DNA of 11,554 bases from a virus (lineage: Duplodnaviria; Heunggongvirae; Uroviricota; Caudoviricetes), in the IMG/VR virus record IMGVR_UViG_3300035701_000012; one strand, given 5' to 3'. Both the position numbers and the translations under genes were made by a program. Numbering within the stretch: the stretch's first letter is position 1; the number at the start of each line of letters is the position of its first letter. Positions 5,983 to 11,278 of the stretch are shown here, in pieces. Under the pieces are notes generated by a model that did no database searches, was not told where the DNA came from, and worked only from the letters and a program-made list of their open reading frames with translations.

Positions 5983-6276
5983 TTGTTTTTTTCTCGAACT
6001 ATGGATTTGGAAGCGAAAGTTTTTCTTTATATTTATTCCAGTCCCGGCACATCAATTGAAAATATTTTCAAGCAGATGAAGGAATTTTTTCCAAAGGATA
6101 AAGATGAAAAAACTCGAAAAAAAGTTGTCGTTGCTGTGAAAAGTCTCGAAAAAAAGCAATATATTTTTCCGCAAATCAATAGAGATTGGCAGATGCAGGA
6201 AACGAGTATTTGGTTCGTGGCTTCGACAGGAGAAGCGAATGATTATTATGTGAGTTTGCTTGAGAAATATGGTTGA
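5983..6276 (+). CDS. Probable winged helix-turn-helix DNA-binding protein, 97 aa
   Basis: Pattern LEAKVFLYIY..PG.SIENIF (helices 1-2), TRKKVVVAVKSLEKKQYI (recognition helix + strand), W.V..TG..YY (wing and final helix) resembles MarR/PadR/ArsR-like wHTH. TTG start follows AGGTGA SD (alternative ATG 6001). Confidence 0.6.
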   Translation: MFFSRTMDLEAKVFLYIYSSPGTSIENIFKQMKEFFPKDKDEKTRKKVVVAVKSLEKKQYIFPQINRDWQMQETSIWFVASTGEANDYYVSLLEKYG

Positions 6277-6308
6277 TTATTAAGTTAATGAATCATTAAC
6301 TTAATAAT
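6276..6308. repeat. 33-bp palindrome: perfect 16-bp arms ATTATTAAGTTAATGA / TCATTAACTTAATAAT around a single A
   Basis: Arms 6276-6291 and 6293-6308 checked base by base as exact reverse complements. Confidence 0.95.
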
Positions 6309-6333
6309 GAGGTGGCAATCTAAGATAGAGAAA

Positions 6334-6383
6334 AGTAACGTATATTCTGTAGTATATAGAAGAGATGGTTTAAATACGTTACT
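6334..6383 (+). promoter_or_regulatory. Promoter P1 (TATA-like TTTAAATA 6369-6376) overlapped by a 10-bp inverted repeat AGTAACGTAT (6334-6343) / ATACGTTACT (6374-6383)
   Basis: Archaeal TATA-like box ~30-40 nt upstream of ATG 6408; exact inverted repeat; near-identical motif recurs at 8035-8051. Confidence 0.55.
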
Positions 6384-6407: not shown

Positions 6408-6650
6408 ATGAGAATTTCAGGTTCGGTGTCAACATCACGAAGTTCAAACGGAACTTATAGAACGGATTCTGATGTAAGGACAGAACATAATGATGTTTCT
6501 GAATATGTTCGTGCAGCTGGAGACCAAGCGGCTGCTCACATGATTTCTGGGGTAGCTGAAGCACATTCAAGGGCTTTAGCGATTGAAACAGCATCAAGAC
6601 AGGGTAACGGTGCTTATACTGAAAGCGAGAGAAGGGAACAAAGGCGATAA
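6408..6650 (+). CDS. Hypothetical hydrophilic protein, 80 aa, no Lys
   Basis: ORF track 6399..6650; ATG 6408 preferred (AGGTGA SD 5 nt upstream). Confidence 0.7.
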   Translation: MRISGSVSTSRSSNGTYRTDSDVRTEHNDVSEYVRAAGDQAAAHMISGVAEAHSRALAIETASRQGNGAYTESERREQRR

Positions 6651-6652
6651 TT

Positions 6653-6907
6653 ATGTCAAGAATACGAAGACAGATGGTTTATACGAGAGGTCAAAGAGGC
6701 GTTTCTCCTATACGAGACTCTATGATTTATGAAACTGAGGGTCATAGGTTTCTCGTCAATAATCTTGAAAGCGATTTTCAAAGCGAACAACGAGCAGTTA
6801 ATCAATTAACTGATAGACCTGAAGAATATCAGAGCTATTTTGCAAAAATGATTCAAGCGTTGAAAGATATTTGTCGAGGATGGTATTATGCCAAACGGAC
6901 AGCCTGA
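6653..6907 (+). CDS. Hypothetical protein, 84 aa
   Basis: ORF track; starts 2 nt after the previous stop. Confidence 0.65.
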   Translation: MSRIRRQMVYTRGQRGVSPIRDSMIYETEGHRFLVNNLESDFQSEQRAVNQLTDRPEEYQSYFAKMIQALKDICRGWYYAKRTA

Positions 6908-7115
6908 TGGTCGTGGAAGATTAGATTATCAAGGAACTCAATCAGGAAGCGGTTCAAGTAAAAGATTGGATTTTTCTATAGATATTCAAGCAAGTAATCA
7001 ACAGTTAGAGGGATATATTGCAATAAATGATGCACCTACTGTCACAAAAGTCGGTGCTTTAGAAAAGTGGCAACTGAGGGAAAAATATATTCATGGAGAT
7101 AGAATTCCTGAATAG
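6888..7115 (+). CDS. Hypothetical protein, 75 aa
   Basis: ORF track; GAGGATGG SD-like sequence; 20-nt overlap with the upstream gene. Confidence 0.65.
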   Translation: MPNGQPDGRGRLDYQGTQSGSGSSKRLDFSIDIQASNQQLEGYIAINDAPTVTKVGALEKWQLREKYIHGDRIPE

Positions 7116-7124
7116 GTGAATAAA

Positions 7125-7196
7125 ATGAACGATGAAGAAAGTGAGAAAAGAAAAAATATTTCTAAGAAACGAGGTATCAATTATGGCAGACGATAA
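7125..7196 (+). CDS. Possible 23-aa peptide (MNDEESEKRKNISKKRGINYGRR)
   Basis: Manual translation; AGGTGA SD 5 nt upstream, as for neighbouring genes. Very short. Confidence 0.35.
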   Translation: MNDEESEKRKNISKKRGINYGRR

Positions 7197-7560
7197 TATC
7201 CGAATCCGATATGAGAACGGTAGAAAAATCGTAGAAATCACAGCAAGAGGCGGAGATTTAGATACTACTATCATGAAAGCAATGGAAACGGCACAAAGAG
7301 TTGGTGGAACATATCGTAGCTCGGAAGTTGCTGAAAGATGGACAGGAGACGTAATGGTGGGGAGTAACAGAGAACAAGTTAATATGTGGACTCGAAACGA
7401 AGCATATTGGCGAGATATTTTAAATCGAGAACCTGATAATTCTCAAGCAAAAAGAGAGATAGAAAGAAGCCGAGACGGTCAAGCTTTTTATGGGGAACAA
7501 CAGCGAAGACATCAACGAATGGCTAATGGCGGAAGCTATTTGGAAGATGATGAAAAGTAG
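7183..7560 (+). CDS. Hypothetical hydrophilic Arg-rich protein, ~125 aa
   Basis: ORF track 7132..7560; ATG 7183 preferred (GAGGT SD upstream). Confidence 0.75.
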   Translation: MADDNIRIRYENGRKIVEITARGGDLDTTIMKAMETAQRVGGTYRSSEVAERWTGDVMVGSNREQVNMWTRNEAYWRDILNREPDNSQAKREIERSRDGQAFYGEQQRRHQRMANGGSYLEDDEK

Positions 7561-7567
7561 TTCCTTT

Positions 7568-7961
7568 AATCTAAGATGGGAACTTCTCAATAATGTGAAT
7601 TGGTATTTTAATCTTAGATAGACGAGCTTGAAAAAAGAAAATTATTATGATGAATTTATTTCTCTAACGTATTTTTGGTGTTTTCATAATGAATATTTTC
7701 TTCCATTTGAGCTAATCTAAGATGCACCTATGGAGGGAGAAAGTTACCGGCTGGTGCAATCTTAGATGGTCGTGGTTCACAAGACAAATTTGCACACGAT
7801 ATGTAAGGGAGTGGCAGACGGATTTGGCATACAATGTGGAGCTCAATCTGAGATTGCTGAACAAATAGTTATAGTAATTTCATAAAAAACATTTCTTTCT
7901 AACGTAAAAACAGTGAATTTTTTATGGATATTCAATCTTTGTTACTGCAATCTCAGATTGA
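7568..7961. repeat. Cluster of six AATCT-N-AGAT boxes (7568, 7610, 7714, 7758, 7845, 7949) enclosing two ~115-bp fold-back modules with central TCTAACGTA
   Basis: All boxes read directly; central bases run A,T,A,T,G,C; perfect 15-bp inverted repeat 7843-7857/7947-7961; TCTAACGTA at 7663-7671 and 7898-7906. Confidence 0.9.
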
Positions 7962-7997
7962 TTTGCAAGTCATTGGTTGATAATTTCATGTTTTTAC

Positions 7998-8051
7998 TAT
8001 ATTCTGTGAAGTATATTTAGCAGTATATACAACAGGTTTAAATGCTTTACT
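7998..8051 (+). promoter_or_regulatory. Promoter P2 (TATA-like TTTAAAT at 8037-8043), homologous to P1
   Basis: GGTTTAAATGCTTTACT (8035-8051) matches 6367-6383 at 15/17; shared upstream TATATTCTGT and AGTATATA blocks; lies ahead of the right-hand operon. Confidence 0.55.
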
Positions 8052-8094
8052 ATCAATGATAATCAGTGATGATATAAGATAGGAGGCGGTTGAG

Positions 8095-8172
8095 ATGAAA
8101 ACGTTTGAACAAATAAAGAGTGAGAGCAAAATGAAAGTTTTTGCTGAAAGAAGTATAGGAGGCAACATTTAG
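8095..8172 (+). CDS. Possible 25-aa leader peptide (MKTFEQIKSESKMKVFAERSIGGNI)
   Basis: Same 12-nt RBS and spacing as three bona fide downstream genes; short. Confidence 0.45.
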   Translation: MKTFEQIKSESKMKVFAERSIGGNI

Positions 8173-8185
8173 TTTTTTCTTTTTT
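8173..8185 (+). terminator. Oligo-T tract TTTTTTCTTTTTT, possible archaeal-type terminator
   Basis: Directly follows the TAG of the 25-aa ORF. Archaeal intrinsic termination uses oligo-U tracts, but T-runs are common in AT-rich DNA. Confidence 0.35.
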
Positions 8186-8210
8186 ATTCATATTCAAATT
8201 TGGTGATACT

Positions 8211-8552
8211 ATGAAACGAATCCCAAGATTGGCAGATGAAAAATATGAGTTTGGCAAAATAAATTTTGGTCAAACTGGATGGGCAAACTTACATGGGATT
8301 GTTGAATCTCTCGAATTACACAGGACTTCTATGCCGTTCAGATGTGAAAAATGCAAAAAAGAATTTCCTGTGGGAACTCATTATATTGGGTCTGGTGGAT
8401 ATGATAAAACTTGTCCTGATTGTGCTGAATATAGATTTGAAAAAGTCAAAGAATATATCAAGGCTCTCAAGGTCATCGGGAAGTTTCATAAACAGATTTT
8501 GAAAAAATTTCAAAAGGAGATTGCAACAGCTAATATTAGTGCAAAATTATAG
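8211..8552 (+). CDS. Zinc-finger protein (CxxC...CxxC), 113 aa
   Basis: CEKC-x19-CPDC; GGTGA SD. Confidence 0.75.
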   Translation: MKRIPRLADEKYEFGKINFGQTGWANLHGIVESLELHRTSMPFRCEKCKKEFPVGTHYIGSGGYDKTCPDCAEYRFEKVKEYIKALKVIGKFHKQILKKFQKEIATANISAKL

Positions 8553-8564
8553 GAGGCGGTGAAT

Positions 8565-8840
8565 ATGACAAGAACAGGTGGAATCGGTTCGGTTGTGGTT
8601 TCAAGCAAAGTAGTTTATGAAGATAGAGAACACTGCAATCAAACTATAATAAAGACACATGGTGGAGAAATGGTGATAAATTTTTTCCCAGATGGTAGAG
8701 CTAAAATTGTTTGTGATGGAATTGTGAAAATCTTGGGTTTTCAGACAGAACAGATGGATTTGAATGCACAAGATTTGATAAATATAAAAATCGTTGGCAT
8801 GAGCAAAATAACTGATATTGCTAATGCAAAAAAGATATAG
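8565..8840 (+). CDS. Hypothetical protein, ~91 aa
   Basis: ORF track 8559..8840; ATG 8565 sits at the fixed N4 spacing from ATAGGAGGCGGT. Confidence 0.75.
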   Translation: MTRTGGIGSVVVSSKVVYEDREHCNQTIIKTHGGEMVINFFPDGRAKIVCDGIVKILGFQTEQMDLNAQDLINIKIVGMSKITDIANAKKI

Positions 8841-8852
8841 GAGGCGGTTGAA

Positions 8853-9914
8853 ATGAAACAAGTAAATCACATAGAAATGGAAAAGTTGATAGAAATTTGT
8901 TATAACAAGAAAATACCTCTTTTTGTTTGGGGAAGCGTAGGAATCGGCAAGTCTGATACAGTCAGGTTGTCAGCCAAGAATCTCGCAAAGAAATCAGGTA
9001 TTGAGTTCTCAGAAGATGATATAGAAAACGGTAAATTTGGGTTCGTGGATATACGAATATCACAGTTAGACCCAAGCGATTTGAGAGGTTTGCCAAGCTT
9101 TGACAAAGGAAAAACAAAATGGATGCCACCGAGTTGGTTGCCGACCAATCCGACAGGTAAAGGAATTTTGTTTTTCGATGAACTGAATTTGTCTGCTCCA
9201 AGTGTTCAGGCAGCGTGTTTCCAATTGATTTTAGATAGGCGATTGGGAGATTATAAACTGCCTAATGGTTGGTTCATCGTAGCAGCCGGTAATCGTGTCG
9301 AAGATAATCCGAGAGTTTTCGATATGCCTTCACCACTATTGAATAGATTCGTTCATTGTGAGTTGAAGATACCTTCAAGCGAAGAATGGACAGATTGGGC
9401 TTTGAAAAATCAAGTGGATACGAGAATCATATCTTTCTTGAACTTTAAGCCGAGCTTGTTGTTCAAGTATGATGCAAAGATGAAGGACAAATCTTTTCCG
9501 ACACCAAGAAGCTGGGTATTCGTCAGCACTTTGGTTAGTGGAGAGACCGATGAAGAGATTATTTACACATTAGTAAGTTGTGGTGTTGGCGAAGGTTGTG
9601 CAGTTGAATTCGGAGCATTCAACAAATTGCAGAGAAAGATAGATTTGGATGCAATCCTGAAAAACCCGGAGTCTACTACCAAGATAAAGGATATAGATTT
9701 GAAGTATTCTTTGGTCAGCTTTATCGCAGAAAAATACAGAAGTGATAGAAAACTTCTCGGAAAGATTCTGAATGTCTGTGATTACTTAGACCCTGAGTTC
9801 GCAATATTGATGTTGCGATTCACGAAATCGGCAAATCCTAAGTGGTTGGATGACATTCTGAAAGAGAAAAAATGGGAGGATATTTCCAAGAAGTATGGAA
9901 AATATCTGGTTTGA
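8853..9914 (+). CDS. MoxR-like (AAA_5/dynein-related) AAA+ ATPase, 353 aa
   Basis: Walker A GSVGIGKS, DIRISQLDPSDLRGLP helix-2 region, Walker B ILFFDELN, sensor-1 AAGN, Arg-finger LLNRF, and the TPRSW motif typical of this subfamily; adjacent VWA gene. Confidence 0.92.
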   Translation: MKQVNHIEMEKLIEICYNKKIPLFVWGSVGIGKSDTVRLSAKNLAKKSGIEFSEDDIENGKFGFVDIRISQLDPSDLRGLPSFDKGKTKWMPPSWLPTNPTGKGILFFDELNLSAPSVQAACFQLILDRRLGDYKLPNGWFIVAAGNRVEDNPRVFDMPSPLLNRFVHCELKIPSSEEWTDWALKNQVDTRIISFLNFKPSLLFKYDAKMKDKSFPTPRSWVFVSTLVSGETDEEIIYTLVSCGVGEGCAVEFGAFNKLQRKIDLDAILKNPESTTKIKDIDLKYSLVSFIAEKYRSDRKLLGKILNVCDYLDPEFAILMLRFTKSANPKWLDDILKEKKWEDISKKYGKYLV

Positions 9915-9928
9915 GATAGGTGAAAAAG

Positions 9929-11278
9929 ATGTCAGAACTCAAAGAAGCAAGAGATAAGATGATTGGCGCAAGAATATCTTTGCAAAAACAGTCGCCTTTC
10001 TTTTCTTATTTAGCTATGCACTTGAAGTTTGTGGAAAGAGATGAAATCTGCTCCGCAGGAGTGGATGGAGAGGGACATCTTTATTACAACAAAAAGTGGA
10101 TAGAACAATTTCCTATAGACCAAGTTAAAGCGGTTCTTTGTCATGAAGTTATGCATTTGGTTCTTGAGCATAATATAAGATGTGCAAAACGAATACACAG
10201 ACTTTACAATGTAGCTGCTGATTTGGTCATAAATGATATTCTTGTAAACAATAATTTTGATTTGCCGAAAACTTGCTTAATTCCAAGAGAAGACTGTCAT
10301 GAAATAACTTTGAAAGATTTTGGTATGAAAATAAAGAATCTCGACAAGAAGACGGCAGAAGAAGTTTATGATGAACTTTTCAAGCGAACAAAGAAAGAAA
10401 GAAAGGAGATGGAACAGCTAATCATAGAAATAGACTTTTCTGACGATTCAGAGAAAAGCAAAAATAAGGATGGTGGTCAGAGTGGGCAGGATTCTGGTGA
10501 TGGAAAGGATACGGCGCCTTCTCAATCTAAGATTGGTTCAGACGAACAAAAGGTAGGCAAGAAACTCTCTAAGGCAAAAAATCAGGATGGTATATCATCT
10601 CCAAGTCAATCTAAGATAGATGGACATGATAGTGGTGGCGAAAAGAAAGTCAACTGGAAGAAAGTTCTTGTTGAAGCCGGATTGTTCGCAAGAATGCGAG
10701 GTCAGATACCTTTGGGTATGGAGAGATATTTTGATAGAATATTTGGCGAGAAATTGAATTGGAGAGAGTTATTGCAGAGACATATAGTTAATCATATTCC
10801 TTATGATTATTCTTACATGAGACCTGCGAAGAAGTCGGTTTCAAGTGGATATTATATACCATCTATACGCAGGGAAAATATAGAAATCATTGTTTCGATA
10901 GATACAAGCGGTAGCATCAGCAAAGAAAATATAACCGAATTCCTCAGCGAAGTTTATGGAATACTGAAATCTTTCAATAACATAAGAATAATTTTGCTTT
11001 CTCATGATGTTGAAGTTCATGATGAATATGAACTTCAATCAATCTCAGATTTGGATGGCATCAAGATACGAGGTGGCGGTGGGACTTCTCATGTTCCATT
11101 ATTCAAATTCATCAGGAATAAATATCCAAATGCTGAACTCTTGATTTCAATCACAGATGGATACACGGAATATCCGAAGCAGGAGACTGTGAATACGATT
11201 TTTGTCATTAATAATAACCATCAGACCCCACCTTTTGGTGAGGTCATTAGATTAATAGGAGGCGGTGAAGATGAGTAA
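9929..11278 (+). CDS. HExxH metallopeptidase-like + VWA-domain protein (DUF2201-like), ~449 aa
   Basis: N-terminal VLCHEVMHLVLEH and N.A.D..IN motifs; low-complexity G/S/D/K linker; MIDAS DTSGS, GGGTSH and ITDG. ORF track start 9920; ATG 9929 preferred (AGGTGA SD). Confidence 0.9.
   Translation: MSELKEARDKMIGARISLQKQSPFFSYLAMHLKFVERDEICSAGVDGEGHLYYNKKWIEQFPIDQVKAVLCHEVMHLVLEHNIRCAKRIHRLYNVAADLVINDILVNNNFDLPKTCLIPREDCHEITLKDFGMKIKNLDKKTAEEVYDELFKRTKKERKEMEQLIIEIDFSDDSEKSKNKDGGQSGQDSGDGKDTAPSQSKIGSDEQKVGKKLSKAKNQDGISSPSQSKIDGHDSGGEKKVNWKKVLVEAGLFARMRGQIPLGMERYFDRIFGEKLNWRELLQRHIVNHIPYDYSYMRPAKKSVSSGYYIPSIRRENIEIIVSIDTSGSISKENITEFLSEVYGILKSFNNIRIILLSHDVEVHDEYELQSISDLDGIKIRGGGGTSHVPLFKFIRNKYPNAELLISITDGYTEYPKQETVNTIFVINNNHQTPPFGEVIRLIGGGEDE

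Follow-up and report, generated by a model that had tools for sequence, protein, structure and literature searches.

Paired palindromic boxes around a shared nonamer between two operons of an archaeal virus-like element: a candidate looped operator array

Genomic Setting of the Control Region

The 11,554-nucleotide (nt) stretch of DNA analyzed here, taken from the IMG/VR virus record IMGVR_UViG_3300035701_000012 (hereafter, the window), has a G+C content of ~36% (A+T, 64%) and carries every gene on the + strand. Few of its products belong to a known family, namely a MoxR-type AAA ATPase (8853-9914) and a DUF2201 metallopeptidase/VWA protein (9920-11278). The nearest relatives of the ATPase are metagenomic and 55-65% identical, and those that carry a name are few, belonging to Nanoarchaeia, Woesearchaeota, and Nitrososphaeraceae, together with one bacterial record. 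Judged by these relatives, the window belongs to an archaeal virus-like element of ~95 kb (the longest contig with the ATPase of the window itself measures 95,314 bp), the host group of which is probably found among uncultivated sediment archaea (DPANN). Using assemblies identical to the window, we read 45.2 kb around the site of interest, corresponding to window coordinates -12845 to 32380. Assemblies of the element derive from sequencing runs SRR11719878, SRR11721626, and SRR11721627, and from the JGI samples 3300035659, 3300035688, and 3300036760, all of sediment.

This site is a 650-bp gap (7561-8210) that, from the layout of the sequence, forms a control region between two co-directional operons, the P1 operon upstream and the MoxR-VWA operon downstream. 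It contains six copies of a short palindromic box within 391 bp of non-coding DNA, four of which are taken up by two modules (A and B), with the remaining two at 7568 and 7758. A first-pass annotation had described these modules as long fold-back structures with a shared nonamer at their centers, and had suggested a nicking origin, an attC-like recombination site, or a single-stranded DNA promoter as candidate roles. The features of the gap and the genes on either side of it are as follows:

7183-7560, + strand: upstream gene, the last of the P1 operon (125 amino acids (aa) from 7183, or 142 aa from an ATG at 7132)
7568-7577, + strand: box 1 (AATCTAAGAT), an exact match 8 nt past the stop codon of the upstream gene
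7610-7723, + strand: module A, with boxes 2 (7610-7619) and 3 (7714-7723); interior 74% A+T
7645-7692, + strand: inner inverted repeat of module A (arms 7645-7654/7683-7692), whose 28-nt center holds the nonamer and GTG
7663-7671, + strand: nonamer TCTAACGTA of module A, centered on 7667
7758-7767, + strand: box 4 (AATCTTAGAT), 44 bp after box 3, in a spacer of 51% A+T
7843-7961, + strand: module B, with 15-bp inverted repeat ends that hold boxes 5 and 6 as full 13-bp palindromes; interior 75% A+T
7880-7927, + strand: inner inverted repeat of module B (arms 7880-7889/7918-7927), with a 28-nt center
7898-7906, + strand: nonamer TCTAACGTA of module B, centered on 7902
7998-8051, + strand: P2, a promoter-like segment with TTTAAAT between module B and the downstream operon; putative promoter
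8211-8552, + strand: zinc-ribbon protein gene (113 aa), the first long gene of the MoxR-VWA operon

Two Modules of Fixed Geometry

As first described, positions 7610-7723 and 7845-7958 align without gaps at an offset of 235, with 62 of 114 positions identical. The module interiors are only 47% identical, and their 44 matches over 93 positions compare with 29.0 ± 4.2 in composition-matched shuffles (P = 4e-4). With the nonamer taken out, 35 of 84 positions match (P = 0.026), and in other registers within ±6 the number of interior matches never rose above 36.

The boxes (AATCTNAGAT) at the two ends of a module start 104 bp apart in both modules, and the central bases of the paired boxes are T/A in module A and G/C in module B. 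The description of these boxes as true inverted repeats is correct for the complementary central bases; however, the box itself is directional (see below), and those of module A are inverted only at the central base. The nonamer TCTAACGTA lies exactly midway, its centers (7667 and 7902) being the midpoints of the box centers at 7615/7719 and 7850/7954. GTG and ATGRATATT also occur at equal offsets in both modules, T-runs follow the center in each, and all of the arms listed in the first-pass annotation are present, including the 15-bp perfect inverted repeat of module B (7843-7857/7947-7961).

The GTG, the 8 nt that follow it, and ATGRATATT could be taken for a ribosome-binding site with the start of short frames of 8 and 18 codons (7689-7715 and 7924-7980), the products of which have only M-(N/D)-I in common. 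We also noted that a stretch just ahead of the 8211 start codon (8179-8204) is 80% identical over 25 nt to 7917-7942 (TTTTTTAT..ATATTCAA), the right half of module B; this stretch also bears a likeness to the guide-RNA promoter consensus of the element. A third, diverged module at 7758-7854 was considered and rejected, its alignment to modules A and B being at chance level.

The Box Family across the Element

As ATCTNAGAT, the box occurs 12 times in the 45.2 kb, compared to 1.4 copies expected from base composition, and 11 of the 12 copies fall within 5.5 kb (6318-11817). Outside of the gap, boxes start at 6317, 10524, 10608, 11041, and ~11816, the last just beyond the end of the window; no similar box clusters were found in the other large gaps of the element. 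These sites, along with their spacing and clustering and their co-occurrence with a second motif, are read directly from the DNA. Those within the window, with the segments that adjoin them, are as follows:

6001-6276, + strand: gene for a winged-helix protein (91 aa, PadR/MarR-like fold), candidate box binder
6317-6326, + strand: solitary box, upstream of P1 and 41 nt after the stop codon of the winged-helix gene
6333-6383, + strand: P1, a promoter-like segment in which an inverted TAACGTA pair flanks and overlaps the TATA-like TTTAAATA (6369-6376)
10524-10617, + strand: pair of in-gene boxes (10524 and 10608), 84 bp apart, in the gene for the DUF2201 protein
11041-11050, + strand: third in-gene box, in a different reading phase and a variable stretch of the protein

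The center-to-center distances between successive boxes in the gap are 42, 104, 44, 87, and 104 bp, which correspond to 4.0, 9.9, 4.2, 8.3, and 9.9 helical turns (at 10.5 bp per turn), while the 84 bp between the paired in-gene boxes amount to 8.0 turns. Four copies lie in coding DNA. The boxes at 10524 and 10608 both read Q-S-K-I within a PSQSKI peptide. This peptide lies in a linker of the DUF2201 protein that varies among homologues, one of which lacks most of it while the other does not conserve it. Given that the Ser codon just ahead of these boxes varies (TCT vs. AGT) while the box is exact, and that the protein stretch is variable or deleted, the in-gene copies fit sites that act at the DNA level, not the feet of hairpins.

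All 11 clustered boxes have an A before ATCT on the + strand, whereas only four of the 11 have a T after AGAT, from which it follows that the box is directional. By our own estimate, the two-sided probability that the seven asymmetric boxes would all share one polarity is ~0.016. Read in order along the gap, the central bases of the boxes are A, T, A, T, G, and C, complementary in four of the five adjacent pairs, for which we estimate a chance probability of roughly 0.005-0.03.

The TAACGTA Core, Two Promoter-Like Segments, and a Candidate Binder

The core of the nonamer, TAACGTA, has five copies in the 45 kb (both strands), four of which fall in the two box-bearing gaps. One of these lies in each module, and the other two form a perfect 10-bp inverted pair (6333-6342/6373-6382) in the 131-bp gap ahead of the gene at 6408. 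The solitary box of this gap is located 17 nt upstream of the first arm of the pair. P1 and P2, the latter starting 37 nt after module B, share more than their position ahead of an operon: 6334-6383 in P1 is homologous to 8005-8051 in P2 (local alignment z-score of about 6), and TATATTCTGT and GGTTTAAAT are found only at P1 and P2 within the 45 kb. We infer from these similarities that both segments may act as promoters.

The nearest candidate for a protein that binds the boxes is the predicted 91-aa winged-helix protein. Its Atlas model has a predicted local distance difference test (pLDDT) score of 0.86, with template modeling scores (normalized by query) of 0.69-0.78 to ten clusters among the matches listed, including PadR, MarR, and HTH_20. 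Modeling of this protein alone with AlphaFold2 returned a pLDDT of 45 and was unusable, and searches for sequence homologues of it found none. A perfect palindrome of 33 bp (6276-6308; two 16-bp arms and a central A) begins on the last base of the stop codon of this gene and ends 8 bp short of the first box. It may serve as a further binding site or form a hairpin resembling a terminator.

Comparative Searches

A blastn comparison of 7000-9000 against 50,697 phage records gave no match, and a search of viral contigs for related loci found nothing. Using two boxes 94 nt apart as the query pattern, two matches were obtained in the viral contigs, one of them in coding DNA and the other in a 26-bp iteron array, which met the pattern by periodicity (4 x 26 = 104). 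The latter array, which contains AATCTTAGAT, forms the long terminal part of an otherwise unrelated viral contig (IMGVR_UViG_3300037041_000856, L002:11700-12333). The same two-box pattern had 71 matches in metagenomes (241 million records); none contained the central nonamer, many were simple tandem repeats, and none were related to the element by blastn or tblastx. A stricter pattern with a central TAACGTA was absent from both the genome contigs (185,579 genomes) and the viral contigs. The pattern search that the first-pass annotation had recommended thus brought up unrelated matches and no further module in the viral, metagenome, and genome collections.

Relatives of the ATPase with 58-65% identity have upstream regions devoid of boxes or a comparable repeat structure. 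The sole relative of the upstream gene (74% identity, beginning at residue 18) is located on a 961-bp contig, where a 36-nt gap replaces the 650-bp region. Across six loci fetched from six assemblies, the gap was identical, with no variation. The architecture of this cis-element is real and statistically solid, and is seen in a single lineage.

Dyad Symmetry within the Modules

We compared the folding of the modules with that of dinucleotide shuffles on both strands, using DNA and RNA parameters. Whole modules did fold better than their shuffles (z-scores of -5.2 to -6.1 for module B and -1.6 to -2.3 for module A), which is largely automatic given that the box is palindromic and any two copies can pair. 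With the boxes removed, however, the interiors folded no better than shuffles (-1.0 to -1.5 for A and about 0, up to +0.4, for B), and a dyad test about the true center, in which the halves were shuffled separately, gave P = 0.19 for A and 0.015-0.07 for B. By these two measures, the long hairpin that had been proposed for each module is not established above chance level once the boxes are set aside.

A smaller symmetry is common to both modules. The inner inverted repeat occurs at identical alignment columns in A and B, and the right arm covers the ATG of each short frame. Nine pairs are shared, of which five are invariant, two are changed on one side to G-T, and two are changed on both sides. 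The probability of such a shared repeat was 0.0013 with G-T pairs and 0.0003 with Watson-Crick pairs only, under a null in which alignment columns were permuted within each half (so that the likeness of A and B is retained) and with a statistic picked after the helix had been seen, such that the true significance is lower. On this comparison, an in-register inner repeat is unlikely to have arisen by chance, which suggests that dyad symmetry around the nonamer has been kept while the sequence drifted. The earlier view that structure is kept while the stems diverge thus finds a counterpart in the inner repeat and its two compensatory pairs, but not in the folding energies of the interiors, which remain at shuffle level. 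Two compensatory pairs in a comparison of two sequences are thin evidence that a single strand folds.

A Looped Operator Array as the Proposed Reading

The reading that we tentatively prefer is that the modules are operator pairs, ten helical turns apart, which would be looped or wrapped by a box-binding protein with the help of a second factor at the apex, and which would control the MoxR-VWA operon. Given that the boxes are spread over 5.5 kb, including coding DNA, and recur with TAACGTA at a second promoter-like site, they are best seen as protein-binding sites on duplex DNA. Taken with the helical phasing of the boxes, their 104-bp pairing around a midpoint motif, and the reuse of both motifs at P1, this spread makes a nucleoprotein complex on duplex DNA the best fit. 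Two features expected of an operator-pair DNA loop are present in both modules: two sites lie an integral number of turns apart (104 bp, 9.9 turns), and a further site would occupy the loop apex, where the center of the nonamer is the midpoint of the boxes.

In the proposed mechanism, a sequence-specific protein, probably a dimer, would bind the box YAATCTNAGAT, with the product of the winged-helix gene (6001-6276) as the nearest candidate. Proteins bound 104 bp apart would stand on the same face of the helix and could touch, causing the A+T-rich 94-bp interior to loop or wrap. A second factor would sit on the TAACGTA core at the exact apex, with the inner inverted repeat supplying symmetric contacts. 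Boxes 1 and 4, which are 42 and 44 bp from their neighbors (about four turns), would join the modules in a higher-order complex. This complex would govern transcription entering the MoxR-VWA operon from P2, and would halt or insulate against transcripts running on from the P1 operon. With its single box and its two TAACGTA sites, P1 would answer to the same two factors, bringing both operons under them. Binding, looping, the identities of the proteins, and the regulatory output are all what we infer from the arrangement of the sites.

Several points weigh against this proposal. The modules are found in no relative, which limits comparison to A versus B. The boxes do not keep a set distance from the TATA-like elements, lying 50 bp upstream at P1 and 87 bp upstream at P2. 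Promoters inside the loops are unsupported, as a matrix built from the guide-RNA promoters of the element does not mark the modules (best module match 47th of about 57,700 positions); the same matrix failed to generalize to gene promoters. Every box shares the same sense-strand polarity, which is unusual for a simple palindromic operator, and a homodimer on a palindrome would give no reason for the complementary centers of neighboring boxes. Lastly, the inner arms have diverged between the modules while keeping their complementarity, two pairs having changed in a compensatory way, and a hairpin accounts for this more simply than a sequence-specific protein. Even so, a looped operator array, rather than a fold-back origin, is the most likely reading of the region.

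Alternative Explanations

The fold-back idea of the first-pass annotation survives best in a protein-assisted form, which we consider unlikely. Here, an A+T-rich dyad flanked by box-bound proteins would melt or be extruded, and the module would fold back within single-stranded DNA or form a cruciform. In the resulting hairpin, with its inner stem of 9 bp, the 28-nt loop would expose TCTAACGTA and GTG, from which replication or priming would start. The shared in-register inner repeat, its two compensatory pairs, and the equal 28-nt centers speak for such a structure, as do the A+T content of the interiors (74-75%, compared to 64% for the window), the complementary central bases of neighboring boxes, and the ends of module B, where seven further pairs continue the 15-bp perfect terminal repeat beyond one mismatch and one bulge. 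The 113-aa zinc-ribbon protein also has a weak, sub-threshold Pfam match to the origin-associated protein OapC (E = 0.0037). Fold-back working of a generally similar kind is known from herpesvirus oriS and the single-strand origins of plasmids. Nonetheless, the interiors fold at shuffle level, nine A-T-rich pairs with large internal loops would be hard to extrude, and the in-gene boxes and the box plus TAACGTA set at P1 would be left unexplained. A little less probable still is the specific version in which box-bound proteins clamp the dyad and the extruded 28-nt loop (TCTAACGTA ... GTG) serves as the start or priming site for the replication machinery of the element. If true, this protein-assisted fold-back would add a type of origin that is so far undescribed for the viruses and plasmids of archaea.

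The gene content and base skew of the region also bear on an origin. The precomputed Pfam hits of the genes called across the 45 kb include no Rep/HUH protein, nor did our own scans of 17 proteins bring one up, and no primase, Orc1/Cdc6, or MCM occurs in the same Pfam set. Of the gene types that the first-pass annotation had suggested seeking, only a tyrosine recombinase appears among these hits, ~13 kb downstream of the modules with many genes between. Cumulative GC skew climbs steadily over the 45 kb with no turn at the modules, and has its minimum ~20 kb away at a strand switch. The steady skew and the lack of an initiator among these Pfam hits weaken the case for an origin at the modules. 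Nor do the modules match an archaeal origin with recognition boxes and a DNA-unwinding element, the interior A+T of 74-75% being modest for the latter. The segment at L084:456-985 (about -12390 to -11860 in window coordinates) holds both the only strand switch of the 45 kb and the cumulative skew minimum, making it a better place than the modules to seek a replication origin.

The specific roles first suggested do not fit. A nicking origin for an HUH protein is not borne out, as the inner stem consists of nine A-T-rich pairs (two of them G-T) around a 28-nt center instead of a short loop, with interior z-scores of -1.5 to +0.4. The attC core sites GTTRRRY and RYYYAAC are absent from 7561-8000, no recombinase gene is adjacent, and the modules stand side by side, not after successive cassettes. 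The Frpo-type single-strand promoter is a bacterial sigma-70 device, whereas the element is archaeal by its relatives, and sigma-70-like sites number 5 compared to 4.0 ± 1.7 in shuffles.

We give a similarly low probability to an RNA element, in which read-through from the P1 operon or a long P2 leader would fold into two long hairpins that end, protect, or process the transcript, or that mask the starts of the short frames at 7689 and 7924. The + strand of the modules folds at -24.5 and -34 kcal/mol, and G-T pairs, which extend the shared helix from seven to nine pairs, do so on the + strand only. Transcription across the modules would also suit the common sense-strand polarity of the boxes, the T-runs after each center, and the conserved spacing of GTG, 8 nt, and ATG, which is like the GGTGA ribosome-binding pattern of the element (GGTGA lies 5-8 nt ahead of the start codon in genes that follow gaps), with the ATG covered by the right arm of the inner repeat. 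On the other hand, Rfam returned nothing above noise for the region (a chance microRNA match only, with no tRNA found), and the interior z-scores are at chance. The in-gene pair, with A/A centers, would leave two 4-bp helices, the box at 6317 lies upstream of the TATA-like element of P1, and the short frames encode 8 and 18 residues with only their first three in common. A C/D-box RNA was rejected, as the C-box-like ATGATGA occurs in module A only.

Improbable in our judgment is a role for the boxes as duplex-DNA sites outside of transcription, in which they would form a centromere-like or silencing nucleation site that loads a partition or chromatin-like protein. Centromeres of the parS type consist of a dense core plus scattered flanking sites, a layout which the six dense and five scattered boxes over 5.5 kb, some of them in genes, do resemble. 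No ParA/ParB-type protein appears among the Pfam hits for the 45 kb, however, and the fixed 104-bp pairs, the central nonamer, and the tie to P1 and P2 would go unexplained.

Least credible is the notion that the modules are two decayed miniature inverted-repeat mobile elements, or recombinase sites, with the solitary boxes as leftover ends: the ~119-bp module B with its 15-bp perfect terminal inverted repeats, the absence of the 650-bp region at the matching junction of the related contig (36-nt gap), and the distant tyrosine recombinase gene would suit it, but neither module is flanked by a target-site duplication, only two adjacent copies occur in the 45 kb and none in the metagenome records, viral contigs, or genomes searched, the ends are palindromic with a 1-bp center, unlike recombinase core sites (with spacers of 6-8 bp), and the center is more conserved than the flanks, the reverse of what a decaying mobile element would show.

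Relation to Known Systems

The closest parallel to the looped operator array is the gal repressosome of Escherichia coli, in which GalR binds the operators OE and OI, 113 bp (11 turns) apart, with HU at the loop apex (PMC4693257). Both systems combine palindromic operators an integral number of turns apart (104 bp, about 10 turns, in the modules) with a separate central site. The gal system differs in that it is bacterial, has promoters inside the loop, and has HU placed by GalR rather than by a sequence motif; the modules, in contrast, have a conserved sequence at the putative apex, a tandem duplication, and no supported in-loop promoter.

Among archaea, Ss-LrpB of Sulfolobus solfataricus wraps an operator of ~100 bp, and the sites of archaeal Lrp-family regulators are set by helical periodicity (PMC2995911). 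The gap is comparable to such regions in having several palindromic boxes in helical phase. The box consensus is different, the spacings are four and ten turns compared to two or three, the candidate binder is a 91-aa winged-helix protein lacking a RAM domain, and no central second motif is described for the Lrp regions. For this candidate binder, the nearest precedent is Stf76 of pSSVx, a very small archaeal winged-helix protein that recognizes specific sites in a promoter region (PMC4027180). The candidate resembles it in predicted fold, in small size, and in being encoded by a mobile element of archaea. Stf76 has two sites at its own promoter, unlike the eleven boxes here, which start downstream of the candidate gene.

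Other systems resemble the modules more loosely. The RIP/RIB elements (BIME-1) of enterobacteria consist of two inverted REP palindromes around an IHF site. Like the modules, they are intergenic units of ~100 bp that follow operons and have palindromic ends and an architectural-protein site in the middle; they differ in being bacterial and dispersed in many copies per genome, with REP units that are hairpins of ~35 bp, and the similarity is one of resemblance only. The HUH Rep origins of geminiviruses, circoviruses, and rolling-circle plasmids are stem-loops with a loop nonamer. A conserved nonamer centered in an inverted repeat, with repeated protein-binding sites nearby, is common to these origins and the modules, the latter departing from them in their nine A-T-rich stem pairs, 28-nt center, and flanking palindromes in place of direct iterons. 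Integron attC sites are imperfect palindromes of ~60-140 bp in which structure prevails over sequence. The modules would be imperfect palindromes of comparable size and of the same logic, but differ in the absence of the core sites, an adjacent integrase, and a cassette array.

To our knowledge, gene control in large virus-like elements of uncultivated sediment archaea is almost unknown. The region described here offers a compact cis-regulatory layout, comprising an 11-base box, a second motif of 7-9 bases, an exact 104-bp geometry, and a candidate binder of 91 aa. Should looping with an apex factor hold true, archaea would have an equivalent of the bacterial repressosome; should the dyad instead work as a hairpin, the region would define an origin or RNA element of a new type.

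Other Features of the Element

The product of the upstream gene (125 aa) had no family or fold match, its model (pLDDT of 68) having no counterpart in the PDB or the Atlas, and the zinc-ribbon protein had no homologue among 5.8 billion proteins. Two short frames in the gap may also be expressed. A 25-codon frame (8095-8172), preceded at 9 nt by a strong ribosome-binding site (GGAGG) and located after P2 and ahead of the zinc-ribbon gene, may be the cistron with which the MoxR-VWA operon truly begins. A 39-codon frame (7766-7885), which starts inside box 4 with GGTG upstream, lies in the only G+C-richer part of the gap (7724-7844, 49% G+C) and extends into module B; it may be a small protein gene.

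Further downstream, the tyrosine recombinase (Phage_integrase) gene noted above (L082:4500-5456) and a gene encoding a UbiA prenyltransferase (L082:3657-4196), together at about 19810-21609 in window coordinates, stand between the module region and an array of guide-RNA genes (L082, about 6670-9860; window 22800-26010). Upstream of these guide-RNA genes runs a highly regular common consensus, near GGGAAATTATTTTCATATTT and then GGTATGG, which outscores everything else by far in the 28.9 kb scanned. Finally, the closest relative of the ATPase (65% identity; L008:41-655), located on an 11-kb contig, adjoins a tyrosine recombinase gene, which suggests that the MoxR-VWA pair travels on several different mobile elements.

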